DNA from: Eledone cirrhosa
Lineage: Eukaryota
Assembly (NCBI GenBank): GCA_964016885.1
Contig: CAXHJY010001318.1
Span: forward strand, 17,313-81,312
Direction: 5' to 3'
DNA: 64,000 nt
Part shown: one piece after another, positions 27,587 to 39,476 of the stretch
Numbering within the stretch: the stretch's first letter is position 1
How the letters are laid out: each line of letters starts with the position of its first letter
Position numbers and translations under genes: made by a program
The notes under the pieces: generated by a model
The model's input: the letters and a program-made list of their open reading frames with translations, nothing else
Database searches by the model: none
Told to the model about the DNA's origin: nothing

Positions 27587-30500
27587 ATAAAAACAAATAA
27601 CGAAACGAAATTAAATTTCGTTTCGTTTGTAACTCACTTTTGTATGACTGACGCTTAAACAATTAAGTTAAAAATGTACATCCACATATGTATACTGAAA
27701 TACTAGTATGCATATGAATACACACACGTATACATATGTAGATGTACCGAGTTTTTCACTGGTCACTTTACTGTGAGTGTCCAGCTATTCTGTATGTAAA
27801 CACACAGACAAACCGGTTTTTAGAGTCATACTGGTTTTTGAGGAAACACCTTTCCTCTATTCTCCAGAAAGCCAGACAAGGAATATTGAACTAGTTTCGA
27901 TGTTGTTACATCTCATCAGCAATATTTACCTATCTTCCGGCCTTTTTAGAGAATCGTAAAAGCACATATCGTTATATGCTTTTTCTATGAAAATTAGTAG
28001 TGGGCAGACTAATTTGCATAGACCGTGAGTACGTACCGGTTCAACGGAGACGATAAAAACAAATAACGAAACGAAATTAAATTTCGTTTCGTTTGTAACT
28101 CACTTTTGTATGACTGACGCTTAAACAATTAAGTTAAAAATGTACATCCACATATGTATACTGAAATACTAGTATGCATATGAATACACACACGTATACA
28201 TATGTAGATGTACCGAGTTTTTCACTGGTCACTTTACTGTGAGTGTCCAGCTATTCTGTATGTAAACACACAGACAAACCGGTTTTTAGAGTCATACTGG
28301 TTTTTGAGGAAACACCTTTCCTCTATTCTCCAGAAAGCCAGACAAGGAATATTGAACTAGTTTCGATGTTGTTACATCTCATCAGCAATATTTACCTATC
28401 TTCCGGCCTTTTTAGAGAATCGTAAAAGCACATATCGTTATATGCTTTTTCTATGAAAATTAGTAGTGGGCAGACTAATTTGCATAGACCGTGAGTACGT
28501 ACCGGTTCAACGGAGACGATAAAAACAAATAACGAAACGAAATTAAATTTCGTTTCGTTTGTAACTCACTTTTGTATGACTGACGCTTAAACAATTAAGT
28601 TAAAAATGTACATCCACATATGTATACTGAAATACTAGTATGCATATGAATACACACACGTATACATATGTAGATGTACCGAGTTTTTCACTGGTCACTT
28701 TACTGTGAGTGTCCAGCTATTCTGTATGTAAACACACAGACAAACCGGTTTTTAGAGTCATACTGGTTTTTGAGGAAACACCTTTCCTCTATTCTCCAGA
28801 AAGCCAGACAAGGAATATTGAACTAGTTTCGATGTTGTTACATCTCATCAGCAATATTTACCTATCTTCCGGCCTTTTTAGAGAATCGTAAAAGCACATA
28901 TCGTTATATGCTTTTTCTATGAAAATTAGTAGTGGGCAGACTAATTTGCATAGACCGTGAGTACGTACCGGTTCAACGGAGACGATAAAAACAAATAACG
29001 AAACGAAATTAAATTTCGTTTCGTTTGTAACTCACTTTTGTATGACTGACGCTTAAACAATTAAGTTAAAAATGTACATCCACATATGTATACTGAAATA
29101 CTAGTATGCATATGAATACACACACGTATACATATGTAGATGTACCGAGTTTTTCACTGGTCACTTTACTGTGAGTGTCCAGCTATTCTGTATGTAAACA
29201 CACAGACAAACCGGTTTTTAGAGTCATACTGGTTTTTGAGGAAACACCTTTCCTCTATTCTCCAGAAAGCCAGACAAGGAATATTGAACTAGTTTCGATG
29301 TTGTTACATCTCATCAGCAATATTTACCTATCTTCCGGCCTTTTTAGAGAATCGTAAAAGCACATATCGTTATATGCTTTTTCTATGAAAATTAGTAGTG
29401 GGCAGACTAATTTGCATAGACCGTGAGTACGTACCGGTTCAACGGAGACGATAAAAACAAATAACGAAACGAAATTAAATTTCGTTTCGTTTGTAACTCA
29501 CTTTTGTATGACTGACGCTTAAACAATTAAGTTAAAAATGTACATCCACATATGTATACTGAAATACTAGTATGCATATGAATACACACACGTATACATA
29601 TGTAGATGTACCGAGTTTTTCACTGGTCACTTTACTGTGAGTGTCCAGCTATTCTGTATGTAAACACACAGACAAACCGGTTTTTAGAGTCATACTGGTT
29701 TTTGAGGAAACACCTTTCCTCTATTCTCCAGAAAGCCAGACAAGGAATATTGAACTAGTTTCGATGTTGTTACATCTCATCAGCAATATTTACCTATCTT
29801 CCGGCCTTTTTAGAGAATCGTAAAAGCACATATCGTTATATGCTTTTTCTATGAAAATTAGTAGTGGGCAGACTAATTTGCATAGACCGTGAGTACGTAC
29901 CGGTTCAACGGAGACGATAAAAACAAATAACGAAACGAAATTAAATTTCGTTTCGTTTGTAACTCACTTTTGTATGACTGACGCTTAAACAATTAAGTTA
30001 AAAATGTACATCCACATATGTATACTGAAATACTAGTATGCATATGAATACACACACGTATACATATGTAGATGTACCGAGTTTTTCACTGGTCACTTTA
30101 CTGTGAGTGTCCAGCTATTCTGTATGTAAACACACAGACAAACCGGTTTTTAGAGTCATACTGGTTTTTGAGGAAACACCTTTCCTCTATTCTCCAGAAA
30201 GCCAGACAAGGAATATTGAACTAGTTTCGATGTTGTTACATCTCATCAGCAATATTTACCTATCTTCCGGCCTTTTTAGAGAATCGTAAAAGCACATATC
30301 GTTATATGCTTTTTCTATGAAAATTAGTAGTGGGCAGACTAATTTGCATAGACCGTGAGTACGTACCGGTTCAACGGAGACGATAAAAACAAATAACGAA
30401 ACGAAATTAAATTTCGTTTCGTTTGTAACTCACTTTTGTATGACTGACGCTTAAACAATTAAGTTAAAAATGTACATCCACATATGTATACTGAAATACT

Positions 30501-33029
30501 AGTATGCATATGAATACACACACGTATACATATGTAGATGTACCGAGTTTTTCACTGGTCACTTTACTGTGAGTGTCCAGCTATTCTGTATGTAAACACA
30601 CAGACAAACCGGTTTTTAGAGTCATACTGGTTTTTGAGGAAACACCTTTCCTCTATTCTCCAGAAAGCCAGACAAGGAATATTGAACTAGTTTCGATGTT
30701 GTTACATCTCATCAGCAATATTTACCTATCTTCCGGCCTTTTTAGAGAATCGTAAAAGCACATATCGTTATATGCTTTTTCTATGAAAATTAGTAGTGGG
30801 CAGACTAATTTGCATAGACCGTGAGTACGTACCGGTTCAACGGAGACGATAAAAACAAATAACGAAACGAAATTAAATTTCGTTTCGTTTGTAACTCACT
30901 TTTGTATGACTGACGCTTAAACAATTAAGTTAAAAATGTACATCCACATATGTATACTGAAATACTAGTATGCATATGAATACACACACGTATACATATG
31001 TAGATGTACCGAGTTTTTCACTGGTCACTTTACTGTGAGTGTCCAGCTATTCTGTATGTAAACACACAGACAAACCGGTTTTTAGAGTCATACTGGTTTT
31101 TGAGGAAACACCTTTCCTCTATTCTCCAGAAAGCCAGACAAGGAATATTGAACTAGTTTCGATGTTGTTACATCTCATCAGCAATATTTACCTATCTTCC
31201 GGCCTTTTTAGAGAATCGTAAAAGCACATATCGTTATATGCTTTTTCTATGAAAATTAGTAGTGGGCAGACTAATTTGCATAGACCGTGAGTACGTACCG
31301 GTTCAACGGAGACGATAAAAACAAATAACGAAACGAAATTAAATTTCGTTTCGTTTGTAACTCACTTTTGTATGACTGACGCTTAAACAATTAAGTTAAA
31401 AATGTACATCCACATATGTATACTGAAATACTAGTATGCATATGAATACACACACGTATACATATGTAGATGTACCGAGTTTTTCACTGGTCACTTTACT
31501 GTGAGTGTCCAGCTATTCTGTATGTAAACACACAGACAAACCGGTTTTTAGAGTCATACTGGTTTTTGAGGAAACACCTTTCCTCTATTCTCCAGAAAGC
31601 CAGACAAGGAATATTGAACTAGTTTCGATGTTGTTACATCTCATCAGCAATATTTACCTATCTTCCGGCCTTTTTAGAGAATCGTAAAAGCACATATCGT
31701 TATATGCTTTTTCTATGAAAATTAGTAGTGGGCAGACTAATTTGCATAGACCGTGAGTACGTACCGGTTCAACGGAGACGATAAAAACAAATAACGAAAC
31801 GAAATTAAATTTCGTTTCGTTTGTAACTCACTTTTGTATGACTGACGCTTAAACAATTAAGTTAAAAATGTACATCCACATATGTATACTGAAATACTAG
31901 TATGCATATGAATACACACACGTATACATATGTAGATGTACCGAGTTTTTCACTGGTCACTTTACTGTGAGTGTCCAGCTATTCTGTATGTAAACACACA
32001 GACAAACCGGTTTTTAGAGTCATACTGGTTTTTGAGGAAACACCTTTCCTCTATTCTCCAGAAAGCCAGACAAGGAATATTGAACTAGTTTCGATGTTGT
32101 TACATCTCATCAGCAATATTTACCTATCTTCCGGCCTTTTTAGAGAATCGTAAAAGCACATATCGTTATATGCTTTTTCTATGAAAATTAGTAGTGGGCA
32201 GACTAATTTGCATAGACCGTGAGTACGTACCGGTTCAACGGAGACGATAAAAACAAATAACGAAACGAAATTAAATTTCGTTTCGTTTGTAACTCACTTT
32301 TGTATGACTGACGCTTAAACAATTAAGTTAAAAATGTACATCCACATATGTATACTGAAATACTAGTATGCATATGAATACACACACGTATACATATGTA
32401 GATGTACCGAGTTTTTCACTGGTCACTTTACTGTGAGTGTCCAGCTATTCTGTATGTAAACACACAGACAAACCGGTTTTTAGAGTCATACTGGTTTTTG
32501 AGGAAACACCTTTCCTCTATTCTCCAGAAAGCCAGACAAGGAATATTGAACTAGTTTCGATGTTGTTACATCTCATCAGCAATATTTACCTATCTTCCGG
32601 CCTTTTTAGAGAATCGTAAAAGCACATATCGTTATATGCTTTTTCTATGAAAATTAGTAGTGGGCAGACTAATTTGCATAGACCGTGAGTACGTACCGGT
32701 TCAACGGAGACGATAAAAACAAATAACGAAACGAAATTAAATTTCGTTTCGTTTGTAACTCACTTTTGTATGACTGACGCTTAAACAATTAAGTTAAAAA
32801 TGTACATCCACATATGTATACTGAAATACTAGTATGCATATGAATACACACACGTATACATATGTAGATGTACCGAGTTTTTCACTGGTCACTTTACTGT
32901 GAGTGTCCAGCTATTCTGTATGTAAACACACAGACAAACCGGTTTTTAGAGTCATACTGGTTTTTGAGGAAACACCTTTCCTCTATTCTCCAGAAAGCCA
33001 GACAAGGAATATTGAACTAGTTTCGATGT
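27587..33029 (-). repeat. Left arm: ~11.7 tandem copies of a 466-bp hammerhead-containing monomer (retrozyme-like)
   Basis: Exact 466-bp period (ORF track 27777, 28243, ...). Copies appear identical. The arm starts directly after (TA)n. Confidence 0.97.
27882..27926 (-). ncRNA. Minimal type I hammerhead (first of 11 intact copies in the left arm, period 466)
   Basis: Reverse complement of aatattg CTGATGA gatgt aaca acatc GAAA c ta gtt caatatt. Confidence 0.9.
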
Positions 33030-33033
33030 TGTT

Positions 33034-36000
33034 ACATCGAAACTAGTTCAATATTCCTTGTCTGGCTTTCTGGAGAATAGAGGAAAGGTGTTTCCTCAAA
33101 AACCAGTATGACTCTAAAAACCGGTTTGTCTGTGTGTTTACATACAGAATAGCTGGACACTCACAGTAAAGTGACCAGTGAAAAACTCGGTACATCTACA
33201 TATGTATACGTGTGTGTATTCATATGCATACTAGTATTTCAGTATACATATGTGGATGTACATTTTTAACTTAATTGTTTAAGCGTCAGTCATACAAAAG
33301 TGAGTTACAAACGAAACGAAATTTAATTTCGTTTCGTTATTTGTTTTTATCGTCTCCGTTGAACCGGTACGTACTCACGGTCTATGCAAATTAGTCTGCC
33401 CACTACTAATTTTCATAGAAAAAGCATATAACGATATGTGCTTTTACGATTCTCTAAAAAGGCCGGAAGATAGGTAAATATTGCTGATGAGATGTAACAA
33501 CATCGAAACTAGTTCAATATTCCTTGTCTGGCTTTCTGGAGAATAGAGGAAAGGTGTTTCCTCAAAAACCAGTATGACTCTAAAAACCGGTTTGTCTGTG
33601 TGTTTACATACAGAATAGCTGGACACTCACAGTAAAGTGACCAGTGAAAAACTCGGTACATCTACATATGTATACGTGTGTGTATTCATATGCATACTAG
33701 TATTTCAGTATACATATGTGGATGTACATTTTTAACTTAATTGTTTAAGCGTCAGTCATACAAAAGTGAGTTACAAACGAAACGAAATTTAATTTCGTTT
33801 CGTTATTTGTTTTTATCGTCTCCGTTGAACCGGTACGTACTCACGGTCTATGCAAATTAGTCTGCCCACTACTAATTTTCATAGAAAAAGCATATAACGA
33901 TATGTGCTTTTACGATTCTCTAAAAAGGCCGGAAGATAGGTAAATATTGCTGATGAGATGTAACAACATCGAAACTAGTTCAATATTCCTTGTCTGGCTT
34001 TCTGGAGAATAGAGGAAAGGTGTTTCCTCAAAAACCAGTATGACTCTAAAAACCGGTTTGTCTGTGTGTTTACATACAGAATAGCTGGACACTCACAGTA
34101 AAGTGACCAGTGAAAAACTCGGTACATCTACATATGTATACGTGTGTGTATTCATATGCATACTAGTATTTCAGTATACATATGTGGATGTACATTTTTA
34201 ACTTAATTGTTTAAGCGTCAGTCATACAAAAGTGAGTTACAAACGAAACGAAATTTAATTTCGTTTCGTTATTTGTTTTTATCGTCTCCGTTGAACCGGT
34301 ACGTACTCACGGTCTATGCAAATTAGTCTGCCCACTACTAATTTTCATAGAAAAAGCATATAACGATATGTGCTTTTACGATTCTCTAAAAAGGCCGGAA
34401 GATAGGTAAATATTGCTGATGAGATGTAACAACATCGAAACTAGTTCAATATTCCTTGTCTGGCTTTCTGGAGAATAGAGGAAAGGTGTTTCCTCAAAAA
34501 CCAGTATGACTCTAAAAACCGGTTTGTCTGTGTGTTTACATACAGAATAGCTGGACACTCACAGTAAAGTGACCAGTGAAAAACTCGGTACATCTACATA
34601 TGTATACGTGTGTGTATTCATATGCATACTAGTATTTCAGTATACATATGTGGATGTACATTTTTAACTTAATTGTTTAAGCGTCAGTCATACAAAAGTG
34701 AGTTACAAACGAAACGAAATTTAATTTCGTTTCGTTATTTGTTTTTATCGTCTCCGTTGAACCGGTACGTACTCACGGTCTATGCAAATTAGTCTGCCCA
34801 CTACTAATTTTCATAGAAAAAGCATATAACGATATGTGCTTTTACGATTCTCTAAAAAGGCCGGAAGATAGGTAAATATTGCTGATGAGATGTAACAACA
34901 TCGAAACTAGTTCAATATTCCTTGTCTGGCTTTCTGGAGAATAGAGGAAAGGTGTTTCCTCAAAAACCAGTATGACTCTAAAAACCGGTTTGTCTGTGTG
35001 TTTACATACAGAATAGCTGGACACTCACAGTAAAGTGACCAGTGAAAAACTCGGTACATCTACATATGTATACGTGTGTGTATTCATATGCATACTAGTA
35101 TTTCAGTATACATATGTGGATGTACATTTTTAACTTAATTGTTTAAGCGTCAGTCATACAAAAGTGAGTTACAAACGAAACGAAATTTAATTTCGTTTCG
35201 TTATTTGTTTTTATCGTCTCCGTTGAACCGGTACGTACTCACGGTCTATGCAAATTAGTCTGCCCACTACTAATTTTCATAGAAAAAGCATATAACGATA
35301 TGTGCTTTTACGATTCTCTAAAAAGGCCGGAAGATAGGTAAATATTGCTGATGAGATGTAACAACATCGAAACTAGTTCAATATTCCTTGTCTGGCTTTC
35401 TGGAGAATAGAGGAAAGGTGTTTCCTCAAAAACCAGTATGACTCTAAAAACCGGTTTGTCTGTGTGTTTACATACAGAATAGCTGGACACTCACAGTAAA
35501 GTGACCAGTGAAAAACTCGGTACATCTACATATGTATACGTGTGTGTATTCATATGCATACTAGTATTTCAGTATACATATGTGGATGTACATTTTTAAC
35601 TTAATTGTTTAAGCGTCAGTCATACAAAAGTGAGTTACAAACGAAACGAAATTTAATTTCGTTTCGTTATTTGTTTTTATCGTCTCCGTTGAACCGGTAC
35701 GTACTCACGGTCTATGCAAATTAGTCTGCCCACTACTAATTTTCATAGAAAAAGCATATAACGATATGTGCTTTTACGATTCTCTAAAAAGGCCGGAAGA
35801 TAGGTAAATATTGCTGATGAGATGTAACAACATCGAAACTAGTTCAATATTCCTTGTCTGGCTTTCTGGAGAATAGAGGAAAGGTGTTTCCTCAAAAACC
35901 AGTATGACTCTAAAAACCGGTTTGTCTGTGTGTTTACATACAGAATAGCTGGACACTCACAGTAAAGTGACCAGTGAAAAACTCGGTACATCTACATATG

Positions 36001-38868
36001 TATACGTGTGTGTATTCATATGCATACTAGTATTTCAGTATACATATGTGGATGTACATTTTTAACTTAATTGTTTAAGCGTCAGTCATACAAAAGTGAG
36101 TTACAAACGAAACGAAATTTAATTTCGTTTCGTTATTTGTTTTTATCGTCTCCGTTGAACCGGTACGTACTCACGGTCTATGCAAATTAGTCTGCCCACT
36201 ACTAATTTTCATAGAAAAAGCATATAACGATATGTGCTTTTACGATTCTCTAAAAAGGCCGGAAGATAGGTAAATATTGCTGATGAGATGTAACAACATC
36301 GAAACTAGTTCAATATTCCTTGTCTGGCTTTCTGGAGAATAGAGGAAAGGTGTTTCCTCAAAAACCAGTATGACTCTAAAAACCGGTTTGTCTGTGTGTT
36401 TACATACAGAATAGCTGGACACTCACAGTAAAGTGACCAGTGAAAAACTCGGTACATCTACATATGTATACGTGTGTGTATTCATATGCATACTAGTATT
36501 TCAGTATACATATGTGGATGTACATTTTTAACTTAATTGTTTAAGCGTCAGTCATACAAAAGTGAGTTACAAACGAAACGAAATTTAATTTCGTTTCGTT
36601 ATTTGTTTTTATCGTCTCCGTTGAACCGGTACGTACTCACGGTCTATGCAAATTAGTCTGCCCACTACTAATTTTCATAGAAAAAGCATATAACGATATG
36701 TGCTTTTACGATTCTCTAAAAAGGCCGGAAGATAGGTAAATATTGCTGATGAGATGTAACAACATCGAAACTAGTTCAATATTCCTTGTCTGGCTTTCTG
36801 GAGAATAGAGGAAAGGTGTTTCCTCAAAAACCAGTATGACTCTAAAAACCGGTTTGTCTGTGTGTTTACATACAGAATAGCTGGACACTCACAGTAAAGT
36901 GACCAGTGAAAAACTCGGTACATCTACATATGTATACGTGTGTGTATTCATATGCATACTAGTATTTCAGTATACATATGTGGATGTACATTTTTAACTT
37001 AATTGTTTAAGCGTCAGTCATACAAAAGTGAGTTACAAACGAAACGAAATTTAATTTCGTTTCGTTATTTGTTTTTATCGTCTCCGTTGAACCGGTACGT
37101 ACTCACGGTCTATGCAAATTAGTCTGCCCACTACTAATTTTCATAGAAAAAGCATATAACGATATGTGCTTTTACGATTCTCTAAAAAGGCCGGAAGATA
37201 GGTAAATATTGCTGATGAGATGTAACAACATCGAAACTAGTTCAATATTCCTTGTCTGGCTTTCTGGAGAATAGAGGAAAGGTGTTTCCTCAAAAACCAG
37301 TATGACTCTAAAAACCGGTTTGTCTGTGTGTTTACATACAGAATAGCTGGACACTCACAGTAAAGTGACCAGTGAAAAACTCGGTACATCTACATATGTA
37401 TACGTGTGTGTATTCATATGCATACTAGTATTTCAGTATACATATGTGGATGTACATTTTTAACTTAATTGTTTAAGCGTCAGTCATACAAAAGTGAGTT
37501 ACAAACGAAACGAAATTTAATTTCGTTTCGTTATTTGTTTTTATCGTCTCCGTTGAACCGGTACGTACTCACGGTCTATGCAAATTAGTCTGCCCACTAC
37601 TAATTTTCATAGAAAAAGCATATAACGATATGTGCTTTTACGATTCTCTAAAAAGGCCGGAAGATAGGTAAATATTGCTGATGAGATGTAACAACATCGA
37701 AACTAGTTCAATATTCCTTGTCTGGCTTTCTGGAGAATAGAGGAAAGGTGTTTCCTCAAAAACCAGTATGACTCTAAAAACCGGTTTGTCTGTGTGTTTA
37801 CATACAGAATAGCTGGACACTCACAGTAAAGTGACCAGTGAAAAACTCGGTACATCTACATATGTATACGTGTGTGTATTCATATGCATACTAGTATTTC
37901 AGTATACATATGTGGATGTACATTTTTAACTTAATTGTTTAAGCGTCAGTCATACAAAAGTGAGTTACAAACGAAACGAAATTTAATTTCGTTTCGTTAT
38001 TTGTTTTTATCGTCTCCGTTGAACCGGTACGTACTCACGGTCTATGCAAATTAGTCTGCCCACTACTAATTTTCATAGAAAAAGCATATAACGATATGTG
38101 CTTTTACGATTCTCTAAAAAGGCCGGAAGATAGGTAAATATTGCTGATGAGATGTAACAACATCGAAACTAGTTCAATATTCCTTGTCTGGCTTTCTGGA
38201 GAATAGAGGAAAGGTGTTTCCTCAAAAACCAGTATGACTCTAAAAACCGGTTTGTCTGTGTGTTTACATACAGAATAGCTGGACACTCACAGTAAAGTGA
38301 CCAGTGAAAAACTCGGTACATCTACATATGTATACGTGTGTGTATTCATATGCATACTAGTATTTCAGTATACATATGTGGATGTACATTTTTAACTTAA
38401 TTGTTTAAGCGTCAGTCATACAAAAGTGAGTTACAAACGAAACGAAATTTAATTTCGTTTCGTTATTTGTTTTTATCGTCTCCGTTGAACCGGTACGTAC
38501 TCACGGTCTATGCAAATTAGTCTGCCCACTACTAATTTTCATAGAAAAAGCATATAACGATATGTGCTTTTACGATTCTCTAAAAAGGCCGGAAGATAGG
38601 TAAATATTGCTGATGAGATGTAACAACATCGAAACTAGTTCAATATTCCTTGTCTGGCTTTCTGGAGAATAGAGGAAAGGTGTTTCCTCAAAAACCAGTA
38701 TGACTCTAAAAACCGGTTTGTCTGTGTGTTTACATACAGAATAGCTGGACACTCACAGTAAAGTGACCAGTGAAAAACTCGGTACATCTACATATGTATA
38801 CGTGTGTGTATTCATATGCATACTAGTATTTCAGTATACATATGTGGATGTACATTTTTAACTTAATT

Positions 38869-38873
<5 letters not shown>
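33034..38873 (+). repeat. Right arm: ~12.5 tandem copies of the same monomer, inverted relative to the left arm
   Basis: Reverse complement of the left arm, 397 bp longer, ending in (TA)n. Confidence 0.97.
33477..33521 (+). ncRNA. Minimal type I hammerhead (first of 12 intact copies in the right arm; last at 38603-38647)
   Basis: Stem I aatattg/caatatt (extendable with agg/cct and gccgga/tctggc); CTGATGA 33484-33490; stem II gatgt/acatc; GAAA 33505-33508; palindromic stem III ACTAGT; predicted cleavage after GUU at 33514. Confidence 0.9.
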
Positions 38874-38908
<35 letters not shown>

Positions 38909-39050: not shown

Positions 39051-39180
39051 TTAAACATTCGTTTTATGTTTGCAAAAGTGTGTTCCTTTGTCGCGTGTCA
39101 TATATATGTATAATATGTGTATATATGTGTATAAGTTTGTGGGTATGTGTAAGTATATATATATATATATATATATATAT

Positions 39181-39445
39181 AACGAAGGAAATGTGGTAAG
39201 GAACCAGGTGGACCATAACGCACCAAAGTACTCAATACTTAGGGTAGTAGAGTGGGTAATAGGAACGAGTAGGACCCCGACGGCTGAGCTCAAGCCGTTT
39301 CGACGGCTAATTCTGGACTAAATGAAAATTTTTATCCTGGTATATGAATAGCCGGCTATTCATATACCAGGATAAAAATTTTCATTTAATCCAGAATTAG
39401 CCGTCGAAACGGCTTGAGCTCAGCCGTCGGGGTCCTACTCGTTCC

Positions 39446-39447
<2 letters not shown>
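39181..39447. mobile_element. TA-embedded fold-back hammerhead element
   Basis: Palindrome centred at 39353/39354 with arms 39260-39447. GAAA 39406-39409; stem III acggct/agccgt; GUC 39426-39428. Confidence 0.85.

Positions 39448-39476
<29 letters not shown>

Follow-up and report, generated by a model that had tools for sequence, protein, structure and literature searches.

We analyzed a 64,000-bp stretch of the Eledone cirrhosa genome assembly (contig CAXHJY010001318.1, positions 17,313 to 81,312; hereafter, the window), which contains an 11.3-kb palindrome of tandem hammerhead-ribozyme monomers at 27587-38873. The contig is 81,312 bp long and set apart from the chromosome-scale contigs of this 3.0-Gb genome. 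The repeated unit is 466 bp long with a GC content of about 35%, and no open reading frame (ORF) of at least 150 aa was found in the palindrome region. Numbering the monomer from the base directly 3' of the predicted GUU^ cleavage site (m1), the left arm (27587-33038, RNA sense on the minus strand) contains 11.70 copies running from m302 to m443, and the right arm (33034-38873, plus strand) contains 12.53 copies from m452 to m233, both without a mismatch at period 466. The arms are perfectly inverted over 5,443 bp (27587-33029 and 33034-38476) around the loop TGTT. The right side is longer by 397 bp (38477-38873, plus strand, m303 to m233), for which the left arm has no in-register partner. 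The center of the palindrome, GATGT-TGTT-ACATC (33025-33038), is stem II of the hammerhead with TGTT as loop II; the arms overlap there by 5 bp, and the left arm supplies the loop.

Complete type I hammerheads recur in consecutive units at 466-bp spacing, with 11 in the left arm (the first at 27882-27926, minus strand, then every 466 bp up to 32586) and 12 in the right arm (the first at 33477-33521, plus strand, repeating up to 38647). Stem III is weak and palindromic (CUAG), and the predicted cut is GUU^C, falling between 33514 and 33515 in the first right-arm copy. A single monomer bounded by two successive cleavage sites (m1-m466) lies at 33049-33514 on the plus strand and corresponds to the predicted circular RNA. 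Both outer ends run into pure TA, with a (TA)n flank of 17 nt on the left (27570-27586) and 32 nt on the right (38874-38905), and share with it the bases ATA (27587-27589) and TA (38872-38873), respectively. Judging from the geometry of the target-site duplications (TSDs) in this family, the left flank with ATA would be the putative top-strand primer and the right flank with TA the putative bottom-strand primer. The outermost 69 nt of the left arm (27587-27655, minus strand, m234-m302) lie between the two end positions and contain a 13-bp hairpin; we refer to this segment as the tail. An earlier note on this DNA had described the monomer arrays with identical copies, the 5,443-bp arms, the 4-nt loop, the 397 extra bp, 23 intact type I hammerheads and outer ends in (TA)n at different monomer positions sharing ATA and TA, and all of these features were found in the sequence. 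No empty allele emerged from genome searches with both flanks, which returned only this locus at 100%, plus unrelated repeat copies.

A permissive scan matched Rfam Hammerhead_HH9 (RF02275) with 36.5 bits (E = 2.7e-7), below the gathering score of 52, and a scan of the whole window at the gathering threshold gave no match. Over 156 locus-level copies, stems I-III are 88-100% paired, and stem II carries a compensatory A-U/U-A swap (82 versus 73 copies). The monomer fold is far more stable than shuffles (z = -12.6), and the circular monomer is predicted to fold at -153.9 kcal/mol compared to -92.9 +/- 5.8 for 40 shuffles. The last base of the cleavage triplet (m466) varies across the family, with 98 U, 49 C, 8 A and 1 G among the 156 copies, and the window locus has GUU. 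Rfam miRNA and sRNA matches were dismissed as AT-rich hairpin noise far below their gathering scores. Four more hammerhead-like motifs lie on the plus strand at window positions 5193, 26986, 52953 and 53146, and their sequence is unrelated to the 466-bp monomer.

The monomer belongs to a large family. Exact patterns found at least 7,828 ribozyme cores genome-wide, no fewer than 2,257 m302 insertion ends with AT after them and, with a stricter pattern, at least 399 ends at m233; all pattern counts are lower bounds, and control patterns gave zero matches. To describe how the two kinds of end are paired, we analyzed 70 of the first 71 m302 matches listed and the first 30 m233 matches listed, all on contig C1 and picked by position, and removed eight rows as duplicate insertions or duplicated segments (L078, L079, L081, L083, L084, L086, L095 and L119). 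Among the 69 m302 insertions, an inverted second arm ended at m226-234 in 48 (42, plus 6 after longer stretches were examined) and elsewhere in 5; none ended at m302, 13 had no second arm and 3 were not resolved. Independent choice of sites would be expected to give about half same-site pairs in this set. In the m233 set (n = 24), the partner end was m302 in 15 cases and m233 in 1, with 1 complex case, 3 without a second arm and 4 running off the stretch. The 69- to 74-nt segment between the two sites, with its 13-bp hairpin, occurs at one end only, so that the layout known from Penelope-like elements (PLEs), in which a 5'-truncated copy is inverted and only one end carries a tail, was present in 48/69 sampled insertions. 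Loose (TA)n ends in the public run X1, which may or may not be the source sample, fell at window positions 33276, 33281 and 33350 of the monomer stretch, that is, at m228, m233 and m302. These results support m302 and m228/233 as fixed start sites, one per insertion end. The two-arm layout is the normal architecture of the family, and the window locus is unusual only in arm length and exact symmetry.

A sister retrozyme family, ~64% identical and with a period of ~480-510 bp, was seen at L195 (7079-9000) and also at L179, L198, L105 and L039. It has the same hammerhead geometry, loop II AACA, the CUAG stem III, a hairpin similar to that of the tail and inverted arms, and one of its ends lies near the site matching m228/233.

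At 58/72 loci, TA runs of 6 nt or more flanked the insertion on both sides; the search patterns had demanded AT on one side. In 21 of the 72 resolved loci, the TA run was interrupted within 10 nt of the junction, making the flanks readable. A direct repeat of 6-9 nt at the exact boundaries was found at 7 of these 21 loci versus 6/420 mismatched flank pairs. Counting the 1-3 bases shared with the element, TSDs measured 12 bp in 10 loci, 13-14 bp in 3 and 10 bp in 1, with none in 5 and 1 ambiguous (n = 20; one locus with inverted ATG/CAT flanks is omitted from this count). In family members with readable flanks the TSD is ~12 bp, in keeping with the TSDs longer than 4 bp of non-LTR retrozymes, and a 12-bp duplication is compatible with the window locus, where it is unreadable in flanks of pure TA. 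The cut would have to leave 3' overhangs of ~12 nt, because both flanks must prime cDNA inside a duplication. Addition of (TA)n by the reverse transcriptase (RT) was rejected where flanks are readable, as interrupted repeats are directly duplicated. A two-arm copy at L215 (8711-9273) has inverted microsatellite flanks, with (ATG)n to its left and (CAT)n to its right.

Next, we compared the two arms of individual insertions. The partner arm was strictly the closest among ~100-140 other arms at 28/45 loci, which supports the view that both arms come from one template. In 8/57 pairs the arms are mutually non-containing, each covering 8 or more monomer positions that its partner lacks (at L053, for instance, m302-238 is paired with about m179-233); neither arm can therefore be a copy of the other, and simple fold-back is excluded for those pairs. 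At L153, a 202-nt arm supplies the hairpin loop of its 2,591-nt partner, which makes snap-back impossible there. Junctions were in register (loop <60 nt) in 17/73 cases, with ~19 expected at random phase by an arithmetic estimate, and the 3/73 with loops of at most 4 nt all lie on natural hairpins or palindromes. A center in stem II would be favored because hairpins of the RNA itself offer two cDNAs of the same polarity their only means of extensive pairing. Arms were longer than one monomer in 27/57 and 24/57 cases for the two arms. At the family level, then, two inverted pieces of one RNA lie within one TSD, as in twin priming of the L1 type; the poly(A) first primer, variable second site and internal deletion of L1 are replaced by two sites that are both internal and fixed. 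A model in which two coupled RTs cannot pass each other on one circle (arm difference -69 to +397) was rejected as a general rule, since several loci differ by kilobases and arm lengths are uncorrelated.

Arms cross the cleavage site in 39/57 and 36/57 cases, and only 8/114 arm ends lie within 15 nt of it. This absence of a pile-up led us to reject a cleaved linear monomer as the template. Full units are identical within young arrays (21/21 in the window, 18/18 at C1:30.83 Mb and 6/6 at L117), and each of these three arrays differs by 3-5 changes from the nearest unit among 14 other arrays compared. The window haplotype, m332G plus m409A, is private, with all 23 of its 23 genome-wide matches at the window locus. 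Because young arrays are uniform across both arms yet mutually distinct, the data favor one monomer copied many times per array, and at the window locus this would amount to ~12 rounds on a circle.

Arrays of 31 units (L212-L213, G000:C1:5.74 Mb) and 70 units (L032-L035, G000:C1:81.85 Mb) keep a short inverted m302 arm, and their scattered shared variants suggest two-arm insertions turning into satellites. Runs X6 and X9, labelled as other organisms, each contain one low-depth self-closing contig (495 and 416 nt) with 95-99% similarity to the monomer; we did not use these as evidence. The monomer stretch at window 33148-33613 occurred whole or in part in 20 listed rows under 17 organism codes, and library carry-over, related species and transfer are indistinguishable as sources.

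These results allow the earlier note's account of the origin of the palindrome to be revised. Its proposal that both ends of one (TA)n cut primed synthesis is borne out by TSDs of ~12 bp and fixed two-site pairing at the family level, head-to-head joining of two cDNAs agrees with the arm and junction data, and the closest-partner counts argue for the single template it implied. A very recent origin also holds, as the units are identical and the haplotype is private in the assembly. The event is not singular, since 48/69 family insertions share the two-arm layout, and the different end positions that the note had reported are now read as the fixed start sites m302 and m228/233. As for ~12 rounds on a circular or multimeric RNA, repeated copying of one monomer is favored by the data, and the rounds on a circle are a prediction, with an uncleaved multimer or later expansion as less probable alternatives.

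We then looked for an enzyme that could copy the element. A GIY-YIG search of the genome gave 10,597 first-look candidates, of which 150 were scored; 9/11 ORFs scanned had an RVT_1 match and 7 had GIY-YIG as well. The element itself has no ORF, so it is not an autonomous EN+ PLE, and ORFs encoding RT plus GIY-YIG lie elsewhere in the genome. Those ORFs whose sequences were inspected carry a CX4CX2C linker ahead of the nuclease, a mark of Neptune and Nematis (Craig 2021, PMC8557442). Inverted arms plus a tail of ~40-60 nt at one end were present at 4/12 PLE ORF loci (L190, L193, L197 and L198), and monomer matches near PLE ORFs are retrozyme copies inserted nearby. [quoted passage not shown]

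Taken together, the element is probably a non-LTR retrozyme inserted by PLE-type twin priming from two fixed internal sites on one RNA, which was itself probably circular. In this model, the element would be a non-autonomous hammerhead retrozyme that is copied in trans by the RT/GIY-YIG protein of a PLE. The TSDs suggest that (TA)n would be cut with a stagger, leaving two 3' overhangs of ~12 nt. Each overhang would pair by 1-3 nt with the same RNA, at m302 for one and at m228/233 for its counterpart, with the hairpin between these sites; the positional pattern is observed, and the chemistry is our interpretation. Both RTs would then copy through the ribozyme site, ~12 times each here, for which rolling around a ligated circle of 466 nt would be the simplest route. 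Finally, the same-polarity cDNA ends would join by microhomology, here within the self-complementary stem II, and each would be filled in. Such a reaction is expected to yield head-to-head insertions that carry the tail on one side, and the window locus would be a very young, long and exactly in-register example. More tentatively, asymmetric twin priming may be the normal route of PLEs, with two RT sites on one circular ribozyme RNA at fixed hairpin-flanking positions, each taking one 12-nt (TA)n overhang and both rolling, so that kilobase palindromes form in one step; we regard this generalization as slightly less likely than not.

Several observations weigh against this reading. The 13 m302 insertions without a second arm and the 5/20 readable flank pairs without a TSD do not follow the scheme. 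The lengths of the two arms show no correlation (rho = -0.23, p = 0.09, n = 57), which means that the near-equal long arms of the window would be luck. Junction overlaps of at least 3 nt, which speak for joining by microhomology (18/63 versus 6.4% for random phases), may be inflated, as arm ends were called by BLAST. In the longest arrays (31 and 70 copies), scattered units have variants in common, so arrays also change or expand after insertion. No PLE terminal repeat homologous to the monomer was found in the 44 GIY-YIG loci examined, of the 10,597 first-look candidates. Another PLE family has the same end motif on both sides in six head-to-head pairs among the first 100 matches listed; these pairs may break the rule, or the motifs may lie inside a tailed arm. 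For the PAc PLE protein, unprocessed linear RNA was the dominant in vitro substrate and start sites were alike on both strands (Frangieh 2024, PMC11167929). Expression, cleavage and circularization of the RNA are predictions from the genome.

The template need not have been a circle if twin priming used an uncleaved multimeric transcript, or if short arms were expanded later by unequal exchange. The weak palindromic stem III belongs to a type for which poor monomer cleavage has been reported (PMC7229834), 8/9 Xenopus dimers showed no cleavage (Li 2026, bioRxiv 10.64898/2026.07.22.740005) and hammerhead cleavage was dispensable for PAc insertion (Frangieh 2024, PMC11167929). Possible donor arrays of 13, 31 and 70 units do exist, the longest with post-insertion turnover. 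However, no donor with the window haplotype was found elsewhere in the assembly, though the assembly may miss it, and the young long arrays carry their own fixed differences, almost none of them unit-specific, across both inverted arms, as expected from one monomer copied repeatedly. We therefore consider a template other than a circle rather unlikely. Snap-back at the window locus is a still less probable route. In this case, the m302-primed cDNA would fold at stem II, copy itself and switch register to meet a short m233-primed end, which comes close to the self-priming model for head-to-head PLE palindromes (Arkhipova 2013, PMC3846280). It would account for a center lying exactly on a natural hairpin, a loop taken from the left arm and arms that differ by less than one unit; palindromes are known at inverted PLE junctions (Arkhipova 2013, PMC3846280), and the window has small symmetric insertions of other families. 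Yet the extra 397 bp is impossible by pure copy-back, in-register junctions are no commoner in the family than expected at random phase, only 3/73 junctions have loops of at most 4 nt, and L153 shows hairpin joining where snap-back was not possible. At the family level, snap-back is already contradicted by the eight non-containing pairs.

An assembly or library artifact, either a fold-back read or a mis-sized tandem array on a small unplaced contig, appears very improbable. The contig is separate from the chromosome-scale ones, and a perfect 5.4-kb palindrome is a product typical of fold-back reads. By contrast, the flanks differ, the ends are the two family sites rather than mirror images, and the private haplotype leaves no second locus available for chimeric joining. 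Equally long, out-of-register two-arm insertions also occur on chromosome-scale contigs (6.9 + 13.0, at least 9.2 + 11.6 and 13.7 + 5.0 copies). At the window locus an artifact is thus unlikely, and the copy number could be off.

Compared with known systems, the reading of a PLE-copied retrozyme places the window element in a known class: it is a real, very young non-LTR retrozyme with PLE-type ends. It shares with metazoan non-LTR retrozymes low-GC tandem units with a type I hammerhead each, the lack of an ORF, thousands of copies, TSDs longer than 4 bp and co-occurrence with PLEs. Its 466-bp unit lies slightly above one published range (150-450 bp; Cervera and de la Pena 2020, PMC7229834) and inside another (51-972 bp; Li, Clavereau and Pollet 2026, bioRxiv 10.64898/2026.07.22.740005). 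Rolling reverse transcription of a circle has been proposed in this literature. In the available text of these papers, retrozymes are head-to-tail tandems, with no mention of targeting to (TA)n, of fixed start sites or of insertions with two head-to-head arms. These papers demonstrate circles or PLE ancestry for their families, in contrast to the predicted circles and possible PLE ancestry of the present one.

Head-to-head inverted 5'-truncated copies, a one-end extension and AT-rich or (TA)n targets are shared with EN+ PLEs (PMC3846280, PMC8557442 and PMC11167929), as are two internal RT start sites bounding the tail and palindromes at some junctions. The PAc PLE protein, modelled as a dimer, cuts and extends both strands and initiates at two neighboring sites inside the RNA, which delimit the tail (Frangieh 2024, PMC11167929); m302 and m228/233 match this Penelope tail and its two in vitro start sites. 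Inverted insertions of EN+ PLEs are likewise surrounded by TSDs, of 8-10 bp (PMC3846280, PMC8557442 and PMC11167929). Unlike EN+ PLEs, the present element encodes no protein, its tail is 69-74 nt compared to 30-40 nt, and its arms are multimeric, with as many as 13 identical units; antisense self-priming is also less favored by the data than a pair of target-primed cDNAs that each start from their own site. As in LINE-1 twin priming (Meyer 2010, PMC2837659), both nicked strands would prime on one RNA, and the inverted cDNAs would be joined by microhomology inside a TSD. In LINE-1 this is a variant route with a poly(A)-end primer, a variable internal second site and an internal deletion (PMC2837659), whereas most insertions of the present family take this route, with two fixed internal sites and with arms that overlap and are longer than one unit.

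Published work already covers retrozymes, inverted Penelope ends, tails and dual start sites. One-site-per-end PLE twin priming, a 12-bp stagger, evidence for a single template and head-to-head retrozyme insertions were not found in the literature searched, which did not extend to supplements, most subscription journals or older Penelope papers. The formation of tandem and inverted PLE structures and the microsatellite bias have been named as unresolved (Craig 2021, PMC8557442), the steps after initiation were left unvalidated (Frangieh 2024, PMC11167929), and priming and insertion by a retrozyme circle were proposed without demonstration (Cervera 2020, PMC7229834). Against this background, the family offers thousands of natural products that follow a sharp rule: one end per start site, a stagger of ~12 bp, one template and read-through of the ribozyme site. 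It would link retrozymes and PLE enzymes through mechanism instead of co-occurrence, speaks against the published model of self-priming in the case of the present family, and suggests that satellite-like arrays and long palindromes can arise in a single insertion. If true, asymmetric twin priming would explain the inverted ends and tails of PLEs without antisense self-priming, with the family as a genome-scale record.

Other features of the window were also recorded. A small insertion of another family at 39154-39448 has the same layout, with (TA)n, an arm of ~200 nt, a perfect center, a 95-nt inverted arm and (TA)n. Further self-inverted stretches lie at 6302-6524, 9583-9665, 16603-16856, 19429-19543, 19641-19823, 25357-25685, 25803-26010 and 59361-59476. 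Finally, an 858-aa open frame at 49273-51849 (minus strand), with ~22 tandem repeats of 36 aa (108 bp), presumably resembles the end of a LINE ORF.

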